The notes beneath the pieces are model-generated. The model was given only the letters and a program-made list of their open reading frames with translations. It ran no database searches and was not told the DNA's origin. Shown here in pieces: positions 12,180 through 19,855 of a stretch of DNA of 64,000 nucleotides. Made by a program: the position numbers and the translations under genes. The stretch's first letter is position 1, and every line of letters begins with the position of its first letter. The stretch lies in assembly GCF_988243305.1 (NCBI RefSeq), contig NZ_OZ547136.1, one strand, 5' to 3'.

Positions 12180-12545
12180 ATGGCTGAGCTTCGTACACTC
12201 CAGAGCAGAATCAAAACACTGAATACCCGACGGGTGAATATTCTGAAGGGTGAACAGCGTCGTGTCAGTGGCAGTGCACGTGTTTCCCTCAAGCGTCATA
12301 TCTGGCTCAGGGACGCCGGGCAGTGCCGTCTCTGTGGTCGTGTGGTTGACCTCTGTGACAGTGAACTCGATCACCGAATTGCACTTCAGTTCGGTGGTGG
12401 TAATGAGGAGACGAATCTCTGGACGCTCTGTACCGAATGCCATCGACAAAAGTCTGCTCGTGAAGCGGCGAGTGATATGCCGGACCCGACGCTGCCGGAG
12501 GTGTCCGGAGGTAGTGGCAGAGAGGACGACATCATCGGACTGTAA
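12180..12545 (+). CDS. HNH endonuclease (terminase-associated)
   Basis: CxxC...DHRIALQFGG...N...CxxCH motif; immediately upstream of the terminase small subunit. Confidence 0.8.
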   Translation: MAELRTLQSRIKTLNTRRVNILKGEQRRVSGSARVSLKRHIWLRDAGQCRLCGRVVDLCDSELDHRIALQFGGGNEETNLWTLCTECHRQKSAREAASDMPDPTLPEVSGGSGREDDIIGL

Positions 12546-12835: not shown

Positions 12836-13399
12836 GTGCTGACAACGCAAAAACGAAAATTTGCGCTGGCGCTCATGTCCGGGAAAAACAAAACAGCGTC
12901 AGCCATTGCCGCCGGTTATTCGGCGAAGACCGCCAGGGTTAAAGGCTCGCAGCTGGCAAAAGATCCTGAGGTGCTTGCGTTTATAGCCCGTAAACAATGC
13001 GAGACGGTGGAGGTGGATGAGGTTCCTGTTTACCGGCAGAAAAAATCAGAGCAGGAGGATAAACCCCGTCGCCGTGAGGCGGCTGCAATACCACAGCCGG
13101 ACGAAAACAATCTGGAGATGCCACCGTCCGCGGTGATGTCTCCTGGTATTGAATATATGGAGGATGGTCTTCCCGATCCGGTGAAAGCCATGGGGCGGAT
13201 CCTGGTGGAAAACCTCTGCATTGATCCGAAACTGGCACTGGATGCGGCCTGGCGTCTGGCGCAGTTCACGCACCATAAAAAAGGGGATACCGGGAAAAAA
13301 TCGGCAAAAGGTGATGCCGCGAAAAAAGCGGCTAACCGTTTTGCGGTGCCACCGCCCCCCCGACTGGTGGTGAATAACGATAATGAGGGCAACGGATGA
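12836..13399 (+). CDS. Terminase small subunit (P27-family-like)
   Basis: N-terminal helix-turn-helix-like region (KRKFALALMSGKNKTASAIAAGYS); sits directly before the large terminase subunit with a 4-nt overlap. Confidence 0.7.
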   Translation: MLTTQKRKFALALMSGKNKTASAIAAGYSAKTARVKGSQLAKDPEVLAFIARKQCETVEVDEVPVYRQKKSEQEDKPRRREAAAIPQPDENNLEMPPSAVMSPGIEYMEDGLPDPVKAMGRILVENLCIDPKLALDAAWRLAQFTHHKKGDTGKKSAKGDAAKKAANRFAVPPPPRLVVNNDNEGNG

Positions 13400-15057
13400 T
13401 ACCTGTATGGAGCACAGCCTGCCCGGACTGGGCAGAGCGCCTGAAAAAGGGGCTGTCGATTATTCCGGATCCGATTTATCCGGACGAGGCCGCACATGCC
13501 CTGGCGATTTTTAAACAACTGCGGATTGTGGATGCACCTGGTAGCCCTACGTTCGGGGAGTCCTGTGCACCGTGGGTGTTTGACCTGGTGGCGGCCCTGT
13601 TTGGCTCCTACGATGCGCAGACCGGTGTACGCCATATCAAGGAAGTTTTTATCCTTATCCCCAAGAAAAACTCGAAGTCCACGCTGGCCGCGGGGATCAT
13701 GATGACTGCACTGTTACTGAACTGGCGGCAGGCGGCGGGTTACACGATTCTGGCCCCGACTGTGGAGGTGGCGGCCAACGCCTTCAACCCTGCCCGGGAT
13801 ATGGTACGACGTGACGATGATCTGGATGACCTCTGCCAGGTACAGACCCATATCCGGACCATCACCCACCGAGTGACGGACACCACCCTGAAGGTGGTGG
13901 CAGCCGATCCGAATACGGTGTCCGGTATCAAGTCCGTGGGTACGCTGATTGATGAGTTGTGGCTGTTTGGCAAGCAGTGCAAGGCGGAGGACATGTTACG
14001 TGAAGCCATAGGCGGCCTTGCCTCCCGCCCGGAAGGGTTTGTGGTGTATACGACCACCCAGTCGAATGAACCGCCCGCCGGGGTGTTCAGACAGAAACTG
14101 CAGTACGCCCGGGATGTGCGCGACGGCAAAATTCATGATCCGCACTTTCTGCCGGTGATATTTGAACACCCTCCTGAAATGGTGGAAAGCGGGGCTAACC
14201 TGCTGATGGAAAACCTCGCCATGGTCAATCCGAATCTCGGCTATTCAGTGGATGAGGCCTTTCTGTACCGGGAGTACCGTAAAGCCCGGGAAGCCGGTGA
14301 AGAGACATTCCGGGGGTTCATGTCAAAACACGCCAATGTGGAAATTGGTCTTGCCCTGCGCTCTGACCGCTGGGCGGGGGCTGATTTCTGGGAAGAGCAG
14401 GGCCGTTGTATCAGCCTGGACGATATCCTGCGTCGTGCTGATGTGGTGACGGTGGGGATTGACGGCGGAGGGCTGGATGATCTGCTGGGGATGTATGTGA
14501 TTGGGCGTGACCGGGAGACCCGCGAATGGCTGGGCTGGGGCCATGCCTGGGCGCATGAAACCGCGGTGGTCCGACGGAAGAGCGAGGCGTCCCGGTTTCA
14601 GGATCTTGTTGCCTGTGGAGATATGACCATTGTCCGGCGTGTCGGGGATGACACGGCGGAAGTGGCGGAATATGTGCGTCGCATTCATGAGGCTGAGTTA
14701 CTGGACCATATCGGTATTGACCCGTCAGGGGTGGGGCAGATTCTGGATTCACTGGCGGAAGCCGGGATCCCCGACGGAATTGTGGTGGGGATAAGCCAGG
14801 GCTGGAAACTGGGCGGGGCCATTAAAACCACCGAGCGCAAACTGGCTGAAGGGGTGCTGGTGCATGGTGACCAGCCCCTGATGGCCTGGTGTGTCGGCAA
14901 TGCCCGGGTGGAGCCTAAAGGTAACGCCATTCTTATCACCAAACAGGCCAGTGGACGGGGAAAAATTGACCCGCTGATGGCGCTGTTCAATGCGGTCTCC
15001 CTGATGTCCCTTAACCCGGAACCGAAAAAGAAAGAATATGCGGTTTTTTTCATATAA
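13396..15057 (+). CDS. Terminase large subunit
   Basis: 553 aa; Walker A-like ILIPKKNSKST; acidic C-terminal nuclease-like half; size and position. Confidence 0.85.
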   Translation: MIPVWSTACPDWAERLKKGLSIIPDPIYPDEAAHALAIFKQLRIVDAPGSPTFGESCAPWVFDLVAALFGSYDAQTGVRHIKEVFILIPKKNSKSTLAAGIMMTALLLNWRQAAGYTILAPTVEVAANAFNPARDMVRRDDDLDDLCQVQTHIRTITHRVTDTTLKVVAADPNTVSGIKSVGTLIDELWLFGKQCKAEDMLREAIGGLASRPEGFVVYTTTQSNEPPAGVFRQKLQYARDVRDGKIHDPHFLPVIFEHPPEMVESGANLLMENLAMVNPNLGYSVDEAFLYREYRKAREAGEETFRGFMSKHANVEIGLALRSDRWAGADFWEEQGRCISLDDILRRADVVTVGIDGGGLDDLLGMYVIGRDRETREWLGWGHAWAHETAVVRRKSEASRFQDLVACGDMTIVRRVGDDTAEVAEYVRRIHEAELLDHIGIDPSGVGQILDSLAEAGIPDGIVVGISQGWKLGGAIKTTERKLAEGVLVHGDQPLMAWCVGNARVEPKGNAILITKQASGRGKIDPLMALFNAVSLMSLNPEPKKKEYAVFFI

Positions 15058-15083
15058 CCCTGTTCACACTGTAACCATCACGA

Positions 15084-15103
15084 ACCGCTCCGGCGGTTTT
15101 TTT
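15084..15103 (+). terminator. Terminator-like hairpin with T-run between terL and the capsid gene
   Basis: ACCGC-TCCG-GCGGT followed by TTTTTTT, then RBS GGAGG. Confidence 0.45.
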
Positions 15104-15120
15104 ATTTTCAGGAGGCTGAT

Positions 15121-17058
15121 GTGACTCTTAAACGGGCCTGTTCCCTGCTGACGGTGAAATCCTTCAGTGAGGATGAACGGGTGATCACCGGGATTGCGTC
15201 AACGCCTTCTCCGGATCGGGATGGTGACATCCTGGAGCCGGAGGGCGCGGAGTTTGGCAGTGCGATCCCGTTTCTCTGGCAGCATGACCATTCCCGCCCG
15301 GTGGGGCAGTGTACGGTGCGCCGGGTCAGCGAAGGGCTGGAAATCACGGCAACACTGGTGAAGCCCGTACCGGATATGCCGTCGCAACTGGCTGCCCGGC
15401 TGGATGAGGTCTGGGCGGCCATTAAGACCGGGCTGGTCAGGGGGCTGTCCGTGGGCTTCCGTCCCCATGAATACACCTTTCTGGACGGAGGCGGACTGCA
15501 TTTTCTGCGCTGGGAACTGATGGAGGTGTCTGCCGTCACCGTGCCCGCGAATGCGGAATGCACCATCCGGACCATTAAATCTTACGACCGCCCGTTTTCT
15601 GCCGCGTCCGGCAACCGGAAACCGGTGGTGAAAATCGCATCTTCTGCCGGCGCTGCGGCACAGTCAACAACCGTTTTTCATAAGGAAAAGACCATAATGA
15701 ATATTGGCGAACAGATTAAAAGTTTTGAAAACAAGCGTGCAGCGCTGGCAGCCTCCCTTGAGGAGGTCATGACCAAAGCCGCAGAGGAAGGGCGCACGCT
15801 GGATGTGGAGGAGGAAGAGCATTACGACAACACCGCAGCGGAAATCCGTCAGGTGGATGCGCACCTGAAGCGCCTGCGTGAACTGGAAGCCGGTAAGGCC
15901 GCCACGGCGCAGCCGGTGAAACAGGCCGGTAACGGGAATGTGGCCGCGGTGGCTTCTGCGCCGGTGATCCGTGTGGAGCAGAAACTGGATAAGGGGATTG
16001 GCTTCGCCCGCTTTGCCAAATCGCTGGCTGCGGCTAAAGGCGTCCGATCTGAAGCCCTGGAAGTGGCCCGTCGTCAGTATCCGGATGACAGTCGTCTGCA
16101 TCATGTCCTGAAATCGGCAGTGGGCGCGGGGACCACCACGGATCCGCAGTGGGCAGGCAGCCTGTCTGAATATCAGGAATACGCACAGGACTTTATTGAT
16201 TACCTGCGTCCGCAGACCATTATCGGGCGATTTGGTCAGGGCGGGATCCCTGCACTTCGTCAGGTGCCATTCAATATCCGTGTGCACGCCCAGGTGTCCG
16301 GCGGTGCTGCCGGCTGGGTGGGTGAGGGTAAGGCAAAACCCCTGACGAAGTTTGATTTTGAATCCATCACCTTCAGTCATGCGAAGGTGTCGGCCATTGC
16401 GGTACTGACGGAAGAATTGATCCGTTTTTCCAGTCCGGCTGCTGATGCACTGGTCCGTAATGCGCTGGCGGAAGCGGTGGTGGCGCGTCTGGATACAGAC
16501 TTTGTGGACCCGAAAAAAGCCGCAGTGGCAGATGTCTCCCCGGCGTCCATCACCCATGATGTGAAGGGCACGGCATCAACCGGTAACCCGGATGCGGATG
16601 CAGAGGCTGCGTTTGGACAGTTTGTGGCAGCAAACCTGCAGCCCACCGGTGCGGTCTGGCTGATGTCCAGCACCAATGCCCTGGCACTGTCCATGCGTAA
16701 AAATGCGCTGGGTCAGAAGGAATACCCGGACATGACCCTGCTGGGTGGCTCCTTCCAGGGGCTGCCGGTGATTGTCTCCCAGTACGTGGGTGACCAGCTG
16801 GTGCTGGTGAATGCCCCGGATATTTATCTGGCGGATGACGGCGGCGTGGCAGTGGATATGTCCCGCGAGGCATCACTGGAAATGCAGTCTGAGCCGACCG
16901 GCGACAGTACCACGCCGTCCCCGGTGGAGCTGGTTTCCATGTTCCAGACAGGCAGCGTGGCCATCCGTGCGGAGCGCTGGATCAACTGGCGTCGTCGCCG
17001 TACTGCGGCGGTGGCGGTGATCACCGGAGTGAACTACGGCAGTGCGTCCGGCGGCTGA
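15121..17058 (+). CDS. Prohead protease (HK97/S78 family) fused to scaffold-like region and major capsid protein
   Basis: N-terminus ITGIASTPSPDRDGDILEPEGAEF...PFLWQHD protease signature, central coiled-coil acidic segment, C-terminal HK97-fold capsid-like region. Confidence 0.75.
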   Translation: MTLKRACSLLTVKSFSEDERVITGIASTPSPDRDGDILEPEGAEFGSAIPFLWQHDHSRPVGQCTVRRVSEGLEITATLVKPVPDMPSQLAARLDEVWAAIKTGLVRGLSVGFRPHEYTFLDGGGLHFLRWELMEVSAVTVPANAECTIRTIKSYDRPFSAASGNRKPVVKIASSAGAAAQSTTVFHKEKTIMNIGEQIKSFENKRAALAASLEEVMTKAAEEGRTLDVEEEEHYDNTAAEIRQVDAHLKRLRELEAGKAATAQPVKQAGNGNVAAVASAPVIRVEQKLDKGIGFARFAKSLAAAKGVRSEALEVARRQYPDDSRLHHVLKSAVGAGTTTDPQWAGSLSEYQEYAQDFIDYLRPQTIIGRFGQGGIPALRQVPFNIRVHAQVSGGAAGWVGEGKAKPLTKFDFESITFSHAKVSAIAVLTEELIRFSSPAADALVRNALAEAVVARLDTDFVDPKKAAVADVSPASITHDVKGTASTGNPDADAEAAFGQFVAANLQPTGAVWLMSSTNALALSMRKNALGQKEYPDMTLLGGSFQGLPVIVSQYVGDQLVLVNAPDIYLADDGGVAVDMSREASLEMQSEPTGDSTTPSPVELVSMFQTGSVAIRAERWINWRRRRTAAVAVITGVNYGSASGG

Positions 17059-17102
17059 GTCTGATAAGGAGGACGGGAGGCGTGCGCCTCCCGTAACAGG
17101 TT

Positions 17103-17324
17103 ATGGCAAAGATCCGATATCTGCAGGGCACGCATGATGCCCGGGCCGGGGATATCCGTGATGTGGCACAGCCGTGTGCGGAGGTGCTGGTTCGCCTGGG
17201 AAAGGCGGAGTACATCACGGTGCGACGTCCGGCAGGTCAGAAAAAGAAACGTGATGCGGAGCATGGCGAATGTGGAACCTTTTACGGCGAACCCGAAAAA
17301 ACCAGAAATCAGGACGTGACGTAA
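17103..17324 (+). CDS. Small hypothetical protein between the capsid and portal genes
   Basis: 73-aa ORF; overlaps the portal start by 55 nt; uncertain. Confidence 0.3.
   Translation: MAKIRYLQGTHDARAGDIRDVAQPCAEVLVRLGKAEYITVRRPAGQKKKRDAEHGECGTFYGEPEKTRNQDVT

Positions 17325-19855: not shown

Follow-up and report, generated by a model that had tools for sequence, protein, structure and literature searches.

In phage HK97 the head genes run in the order terminase, portal, protease, capsid, and the protease, a protein of its own, reaches the inside of the procapsid by non-covalent targeting. Phage lambda (C/Nu3) and the herpesviruses (UL26/UL26.5) use nested protease/scaffold genes. The same nested strategy has been described for OsHV-1 (PMC11565193), and in small actinobacteriophages (clusters AN, EE and others) and thaumarchaeal proviruses protease, scaffold and capsid are encoded in a single open reading frame (ORF) (PMC7302621, PMC5513430, PMC6563490). 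Here we analyze a stretch of 64,000 nucleotides (nt) from contig NZ_OZ547136.1 of RefSeq assembly GCF_988243305.1 (the window), in which a 645-amino acid (aa) ORF of an Escherichia coli prophage joins an HK97-type protease to a capsid protein and precedes the portal gene, and we present comparative evidence suggesting that this fused gene also contains a nested capsid gene with a ribosome-binding site (RBS) of its own.

The protease-capsid fusion and the gene order are already known, and public annotations of both exist. ORF003 of Pseudomonas phage PAJU2, annotated as a 'prohead protease fused capsid protein', belongs to the same family with 48% identity and lies in the same order as in the window (terminase, fusion gene, small gene or genes, portal, a gene that we call X, adaptor), and the Shiga toxin (Stx) phages 2851, YYZ-2008, 1717 and WGPS6 carry members with 95–100% identity, again in this order. 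In PAJU2 and in about 60% of the E. coli copies portal and X are separate, whereas in the window they are fused; nothing else essential differs. The actinobacteriophage and thaumarchaeal fusions belong to sequence families unrelated to that of the window. The NCBIfam model for a 'prohead protease/major capsid protein fusion protein' (NF045541) matches the window protein over aa 48–287 only, with 54 bits against a cut-off of 525, and the window protein is therefore a member of a different fusion family. Its likeness is to HK97 gp4 and gp5 taken together: an S78 protease with His/Ser, an N-terminal delta domain on a capsid protein of HK97 fold, no separate scaffold gene, and portal, terminase and connector families of the HK97 type. 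It differs from HK97 in that the portal gene follows the capsid gene and in that protease and delta-capsid protein form one covalent chain.

An earlier note on this DNA, made from the letters alone, had read the ORF as prohead protease, coiled-coil scaffold-like segment and capsid domain in one protein, and this composition is borne out by Pfam, PHROG, AlphaFold2 and Foldseek (Table I). The GTG start at 15121 is preceded by AGGAGG at 15110–15115, with a predicted duplex energy with the anti-Shine-Dalgarno (anti-SD) sequence of -10.3 kcal/mol. Pfam places Peptidase_S78 (PF04586) at aa 48–152 (E=2.4e-8, above cut-off) and Phage_capsid (PF05065) at aa 386–635 (E=4e-14), and PHROG 617 ('major head protein') aligns aa 1–639 with positions 7–626 of its 626-position profile (E=1e-261). 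The protease model TIGR01543 matches with 46.5 bits, below its 59-bit cut-off, and the HK97 capsid model TIGR01554 aligns from aa 204. With 125 homologues as input, AlphaFold2 gave a model whose mean predicted local distance difference test score (pLDDT) is 86. Residues His-55 and Ser-110 are invariant in the alignment of these homologues and occupy the sites in the S78 domain that we presume to be those of the family's catalytic His and Ser. The earlier note had named the absence of a capsid fold from the C-terminal half as the result that would overturn its reading; Foldseek instead finds the HK97 fold there, the best PDB matches being the capsid proteins of Bxb1, D3, HK97, T5 and the Rhodobacter gene transfer agent (GTA), with E-values down to 3.5e-15.

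In profile alignments, position 347 falls on residue 3 of the capsid protein deposited for siphophage R4C (8gta), and positions 198–266 align to the first 70 residues of the head protein of EcCI2 (9gyi_B). As a rough estimate from these alignments, the delta domain would span about aa 193–330 and the mature N terminus would lie near aa 335–345. No separate scaffold gene was found between the terminase small subunit (TerS) and the adaptor in the ORF list, Pfam, PHROG or the RefSeq annotation. The linker between protease and delta domain is variable apart from a motif, P-G-(A/V)-S-G, that most homologues carry about 10–15 residues before the internal methionine considered below; the window has SAGAA at that position (15643–15657, aa 175–179). 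The motif could be a cleavage or targeting signal.

An exhaustive profile-free search with the 645-aa protein yielded, at E<=1e-30, 1197 cluster representatives; their length is mostly 630–680 aa, and some of about 460 aa begin exactly at query residue 193–194. For a comparison of whole loci, a search with the single protein gave near-identical E. coli prophages only, and a profile search was used instead; the resulting set consists of 80 loci from species-representative genomes, at 34–71% identity, together with three metagenomic loci. The genomes are those of Pantoea, Erwinia, Morganella, Proteus, Pseudomonas, Comamonas, Brucella, Microvirga, Paracoccus, Sphingomonas, Burkholderia/Caballeronia, Moraxella and several uncultured phyla. 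Protease and capsid share one ORF at 45 loci, the window included, and are two genes at 38.

The unfused capsid proteins start exactly at the position of Met-193, which in the AlphaFold2 model lies at the end of the linker, just ahead of the delta helices. A start codon is kept at this position in all 45 fused genes (43 ATG and 2 GTG), 2–4 codons before a conserved I-x-E-Q-I motif. The median predicted anti-SD duplex energy at this internal start was -5.9 kcal/mol (n=45) and that at the genuine capsid starts of unfused relatives -5.85 kcal/mol (n=38), against -2.7 kcal/mol at other in-frame ATGs of the fused genes (n=616; Mann-Whitney p about 3e-16 for the internal start versus these) and -2.9 kcal/mol at random codons (n=450). 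When the energy was followed along the genes, the Shine-Dalgarno (SD) signal showed one sharply defined minimum (mean -6.5 to -6.9) in the segment ending 3–6 nt before the ATG, with values of +0.7 to -2.7 over the remaining linker and the coding sequence behind it, and the spacing between SD and ATG was 5–10 nt in 40 of the 45 genes. Because the residues encoded at the SD differ (KE, KG, EEG, KKG or PKEG) while the GGA/GGAGG core is kept, the comparison points to selection acting on the nucleotides themselves.

We infer from this conservation that the fused ORF is a nested gene that specifies both a long, protease-tethered product and a 453-aa delta-capsid protein beginning at Met-193. The earlier note had taken the ORF as the source of a single product; the ORF is real, but the comparative evidence suggests that a capsid gene with its own RBS is nested in it. 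Initiation at GTG 15121 would yield the 645-aa protease-linker-delta-capsid polyprotein, and initiation at the conserved internal SD and ATG (15697) would yield the shorter protein, probably in excess. The two products would co-assemble through their delta and capsid domains, with the protease entering the procapsid tethered covalently to a minority of the subunits, and the protease (His-55/Ser-110) would then cut off itself, the linker and the delta domain to leave a mature capsid protein of about 300 aa. Like C/Nu3 and UL26/UL26.5, such a gene would pair a long product that has an N-terminal protease with a shorter product, started internally and in frame, that shares the C-terminal assembly domain, a logic that would deliver few protease copies among many assembly subunits. 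It would differ from them in that the shared C-terminal part is the capsid protein with its delta domain and not a separate scaffold, and the internal start, with an initiation signal of its own, is present here as a sequence signature from which its use is deduced.

Table I. Features of the packaging and head region, in window coordinates
Feature	Coordinates	Strand	Evidence
HNH endonuclease, first gene of the packaging/head module	12180..12545	+	Pfam HNH, E=3.7e-8
Terminase small subunit (TerS)	12836..13399	+	Pfam Terminase_2, PHROG 641
Terminase large subunit (TerL), directly 5' of the fusion gene	13396..15057	+	Pfam TerL_ATPase and TerL_nuclease, PHROG 9
Terminator-like hairpin with T-run between TerL and fusion gene, followed by AGGAGG (15110-15115) and GTG (15121)	15082..15099	+	Consensus scan, sequence reading
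Protease-linker-delta-capsid ORF, 645 aa, GTG start	15121..17058	+	ORF list, RefSeq, Pfam, PHROG, AlphaFold2, Foldseek
S78 (HK97 gp4-type) prohead protease domain, aa 17-153	15169..15579	+	PF04586, TIGR01543; AlphaFold2 pLDDT above 90
Disordered linker, aa 155-190	15583..15690	+	AlphaFold2 pLDDT below 50; homologue columns highly variable and gappy
Predicted internal RBS: AAGGA (15682-15686), 10-nt spacer, ATG (15697-15699, M193); putative start of the 453-aa delta-capsid product	15682..15699	+	Sequence, unfused homologues, conservation
Delta (scaffold) domain, helical hairpin, aa 193-262	15697..15906	+	AlphaFold2 helices 195-222 and 229-262, pLDDT about 96; TIGR01554; profile versus 9gyi_B
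HK97-fold capsid shell domain, about aa 340-645	16138..17055	+	Foldseek versus PDB; profile versus 8gta
AGGAGG (17067-17072), 9-bp GC-rich hairpin (17073-17094), 8-nt spacer, small-ORF ATG (17103)	17067..17105	+	Sequence, folding
Small gene, 73 aa, WP_001063099.1; 3' end overlaps the portal start by 55 nt	17103..17324	+	PHROG 829, RefSeq coding sequence
Portal protein proper, aa 1-454 of the 861-aa ORF	17270..18631	+	Pfam Phage_portal, TIGR01537, PDB portals, separate gene in G5 alleles
G6 homopolymer; sixth G fuses portal with X; in G5 alleles separate genes overlap by ATGA	18615..18620	+	Alignment with Stx2_EH2201, JLK-2012 and 2851
Gene X, aa 455-861, fibre-like	18632..19855	+	Separate gene of relatives, AlphaFold2, fold search
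Tandem repeat inside X, 162-bp (54-aa) unit, 3.3 copies, 95% identical	18857..19389	+	Tandem Repeats Finder
Head-tail adaptor (gp6-like)	19852..20178	+	Pfam Phage_connect_1, PHROG 40

Gene order in the relatives was read by iterated hidden Markov model searches of all stop-to-stop ORFs. The fusion gene directly follows TerL and the portal ORF comes afterwards, as the earlier note had recognized, and it had called this order unusual. The order does differ from those of HK97 and lambda; it is nevertheless standard for the lineage, and the synteny comparison that the note had proposed found it throughout. TerL is followed by protease/capsid and then by portal, wherever these genes are present, in all 83 related loci (from alpha-, beta- and gammaproteobacteria and other phyla) as well as in the window, usually with an HNH gene upstream and a gp6-like adaptor downstream. 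Isolated Pseudomonas phages have the capsid gene before the portal gene too. Because the order is invariant in the 83 loci and in these phages, it is on this comparison a trait of the lineage and not a local rearrangement. The fixed order of the lineage reads HNH, TerS, TerL, protease and capsid (fused or not), small gene, portal, fibre-like gene X, adaptor.

On this constant background the fusion itself comes and goes. Where protease and capsid are two genes, they overlap by ATGA at 11 loci and otherwise lie 2–170 nt apart, except for one pair with a 29-nt overlap and one with a 623-nt spacer. A neighbor-joining tree of the delta-capsid part requires at least 16 switches between the fused and unfused states, and the fusion is therefore, as judged from this tree, a frequently toggled character, which suggests that the two states are nearly equivalent in function. 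Several two-gene relatives (for example, locus L085 at 2990–3060) have a GC-rich hairpin, sometimes with a T-run, in the spacer between protease and capsid genes, so that their capsid gene is flanked by a hairpin on either side.

The region behind the capsid gene has a hairpin in the window as well. The earlier note had placed it at 17076–17093; the hairpin is real, and its full stem is slightly wider than was stated (17073–17094), with a folding score of z=-3.3 relative to shuffled sequences. We rejected it as a canonical intrinsic terminator, there being no U-run after the stem and no call by the consensus scan; in some relatives a T-run does follow. Across the lineage loci the best 40-nt fold within 90 nt after the capsid stop has a median of -22.6 kcal/mol, compared with -14.4 kcal/mol in coding controls, and a fold of -15 kcal/mol or better is present at 87% of loci versus 42% of controls (p=1.6e-23). 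By this comparison the post-capsid hairpin is a conserved positional element of the lineage. It probably lowers or uncouples the expression of the low-copy genes downstream (small gene and portal), by attenuation or by a stabilization of the mRNA that favors capsid over portal. Two terminator-like hairpins with T-runs, at 15082–15099 and 21350–21364, lie directly 5' of the capsid fusion gene and of the major tail gene, respectively, and these may direct the processing or the stability of a late mRNA made under Q antitermination.

These hairpins bear on whether the order reflects adaptation and not descent. Were the capsid gene placed before the portal gene and bracketed by hairpins (15082–15099 and 17073–17094) so that mRNA processing or partial termination sets a high ratio of capsid to portal, one would point to the stable fold directly after the capsid stop in 87% of loci, to the T-run behind it in some relatives, and to the terminator-like hairpins 5' of the fusion gene and of the major tail gene. 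The downstream hairpin of the window lacks a U-run, however, late transcription in lambdoid phages is governed by antitermination through Q, which overrides terminators (the annotation has a Q gene upstream), and phages with the canonical order achieve the same stoichiometry. We consider such an adaptive origin of the order unlikely.

A different objection concerns the internal start. If only the 645-aa protein were made, every subunit would carry a protease into the procapsid (about 415 copies at T=7), all of these would be autoproteolysed, and the internal SD and ATG would be the relic of a once separate gene. An unselected relic should decay as the neighboring linker does, and yet SD and ATG persist in deep fused clades whose linkers have fully diverged (Enterobacterales members at 57–71% identity and a large alphaproteobacterial clade); the signal is moreover sharply positioned and equal in strength to that of genuine capsid starts. 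Repeated switching between the fused and unfused states could, on the other side, re-supply relic start sites, the ORF is uninterrupted with a strong SD at its own start, and by our own rough estimate about 415 protease domains would fit into a T=7 procapsid. The protease-scaffold-capsid fusions of small actinophages have likewise been described as single fusion proteins (PMC7302621, PMC5513430). Weighing these points, we regard the production of the long protein alone as unlikely, but far from negligible.

Several observations also weigh against a nested capsid start. The SD of Met-193 in the window (-6.2 kcal/mol, with 10-nt spacing) does not stand above those of several other in-frame ATGs (-1.5 to -8.1 kcal/mol), and what gives the internal start its weight is the comparative evidence and not the window SD alone. 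The case for internal initiation is thus one of conservation between sequences, and the 45 fused sequences are phylogenetically related and not independent of each other; frequent switching of state could in principle refresh an SD and ATG without selection in the fused state. Translation arriving from upstream through an internal RBS can suppress initiation there. Finally, the SD of the long product is itself strong (AGGAGG, -10.3) and the protease starts of the lineage are mostly ATG, and therefore nothing in the sequence marks the long product as the minor one. A weak GTG start as a general means of keeping the fusion product rare was rejected, 75 of 83 protease starts being ATG.

Many E. 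coli prophages are defective and the portal ORF is truly an indel-generated fusion, but a defect of this prophage (local rearrangement, pseudogene fusion or assembly error) is so improbable that for the protease-capsid gene and the gene order we take it as refuted, as the same order and fusion recur in 100%-identical copies in many genomes, the arrangement is shared with the sequenced Stx phages 2851, YYZ-2008 and WGPS6 and the order with 83 distant relatives, and the catalytic residues are intact.

The portal ORF is a second fusion in the same module. Its double length was absent from the claims of the earlier note. The 861-aa ORF (17270–19855, + strand) has Phage_portal at aa 54–382 (Pfam, E=6e-81) and matches PHROG 2271 end to end; TIGR01537, the HK97-family portal model, scores 349 bits against a cut-off of 112, and the HK97-type portals 9lbn and 8cez of the PDB align to aa 43–420. 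A single-domain portal has about 400–480 aa, and the ORF is thus about twice the normal length. In relatives with gene X the portal has about 420–540 aa and X is separate, its ATG usually overlapping the portal stop by 1, 4 or 8 nt; in E. coli phages JLK-2012 and Stx2_EH2201 the two are separate genes of 454 and 407 aa. The window and phage 2851 carry a run of six Gs where JLK-2012 and Stx2_EH2201 have five, and the extra G sets X in frame with the portal. X keeps its own ATG (18632–18634, Met-455) and a strong G-rich SD (-10.2 kcal/mol). Among IMG/VR contigs 41 have G6 and 57 have G5 (about 60% of E. coli copies have two genes), and four flanking haplotypes occur with both lengths, which suggests recurrent slippage or homopolymer sequencing errors. 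Programmed frameshifting at G6 that would restore a portal of normal length is unsupported, the sequence UUC AGG GGG GAU by our own reading matching no known -1 heptamer; a +1 slip on GGG_G, which would place a common Asp codon in the A site, is likewise unsupported.

The protein encoded by X is built of a coiled-coil N terminus, a variable middle and a conserved C-terminal beta domain (AlphaFold2 pLDDT 90). The middle is made up of the 54-aa repeat in the window and of collagen triple-helix repeats in other lineages. A fold search with the C-terminal domain gave no confident whole-domain match, only a local match to a CBM5/12 chitin-binding-type module and weak similarity to tail fibers, and on these models X looks fibre-like. 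Some records of related phages align as two segments and are about 162 bp shorter, which suggests variation in the copy number of the tandem repeat in X. In other portals the C terminus, the end to which X is tethered here, faces the capsid interior. Taking the two fusions together, we lean toward the view that across the lineage fused capsid genes are nested, with the internal RBS supplying the bulk of the delta-capsid protein and the protease start a minority of tethered subunits, that switching is near-neutral, and that the same principle holds for the G5/G6 fusion of portal and fibre-like gene.

Between capsid and portal genes lies the small overlapping ORF (17103–17324) that the earlier note had listed; it is a real gene, and members of its family occupy this place in 48 of 79 loci. 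Conserved in this family are an N-terminal domain of about 40 aa, with the motif IATKxxxYxxRxLxxGDxFEAxxRDARxLxAIxKA; its members also have a charged tail, which in many non-enterobacterial ones ends in KRxYKRRDMKAE. Apart from PHROG 829, the sole match was a weak one to DUF7210. The window ORF has no SD directly upstream of its ATG (+0.5 kcal/mol), AGGAGG sitting immediately 5' of the hairpin instead, and this layout recurs in three relatives from Pantoea/Erwinia (TAAGGAG, hairpin, about 10 nt, ATG). By this layout the start may be a split Shine-Dalgarno site bridged by the hairpin.

This packaging and head module comes from a lambdoid E. coli prophage of the Pankowvirus/Stx-phage type and belongs to a large HK97-type lineage. 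RefSeq annotates the 645-aa ORF identically, and by the annotation of an identical RefSeq copy (Q antiterminator, lysis genes, HNH, TerS, TerL, fusion gene, portal, connectors and lambda-like tail) the prophage is a typical lambdoid one. An HNH gene lies 5' of terminase in the window and in most of 84 loci examined (70 HNH-matching ORFs). The partnership of HNH and terminase is known from HK97-like cos phages, which the position of the gene fits, and the genes 3' of the head-tail adaptor are in canonical order. The 8.1-kb module matches 95 phage records at 90–99.8% identity, namely Stx1- and Stx2-converting phages together with 2851 (genus Pankowvirus), YYZ-2008, 1717 and JLK-2012, in which the gene is labeled 'major head protein/prohead protease', 'capsid and scaffold' or 'prohead protease'. 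Of 5426 complete E. coli genomes, 1255 carry the module; those that do have a median of five copies, and many copies are 100% identical. The virion mass-spectrometry paper on phi330 (Pankowvirus) gives peptide maps for podoviruses only. For the locus as a whole we judge it likely that it is an HK97-type module of fixed order with a nested capsid start, a post-capsid hairpin and a portal-X fusion that depends on the G-run.

The fusion and the order as first noted carry little weight, being publicly annotated and part of one of the commonest prophage head modules in E. coli; what merits follow-up is the internal start that the fused capsid genes conserve and the fusion of portal and fibre-like gene that depends on the G-tract. 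In many fused capsid genes there is probably a second product that annotation pipelines overlook, and the pipelines label the portal-plus-fibre-like fusion simply 'portal protein'. The nested start would explain, in a form open to test, how the dose of a covalently fused maturation protease is set correctly and, if confirmed, would extend the nested-gene strategy of lambda and the herpesviruses to the capsid protein itself. As the module is present in many Shiga-toxin phages, knowledge of its assembly bears on the production of their particles.

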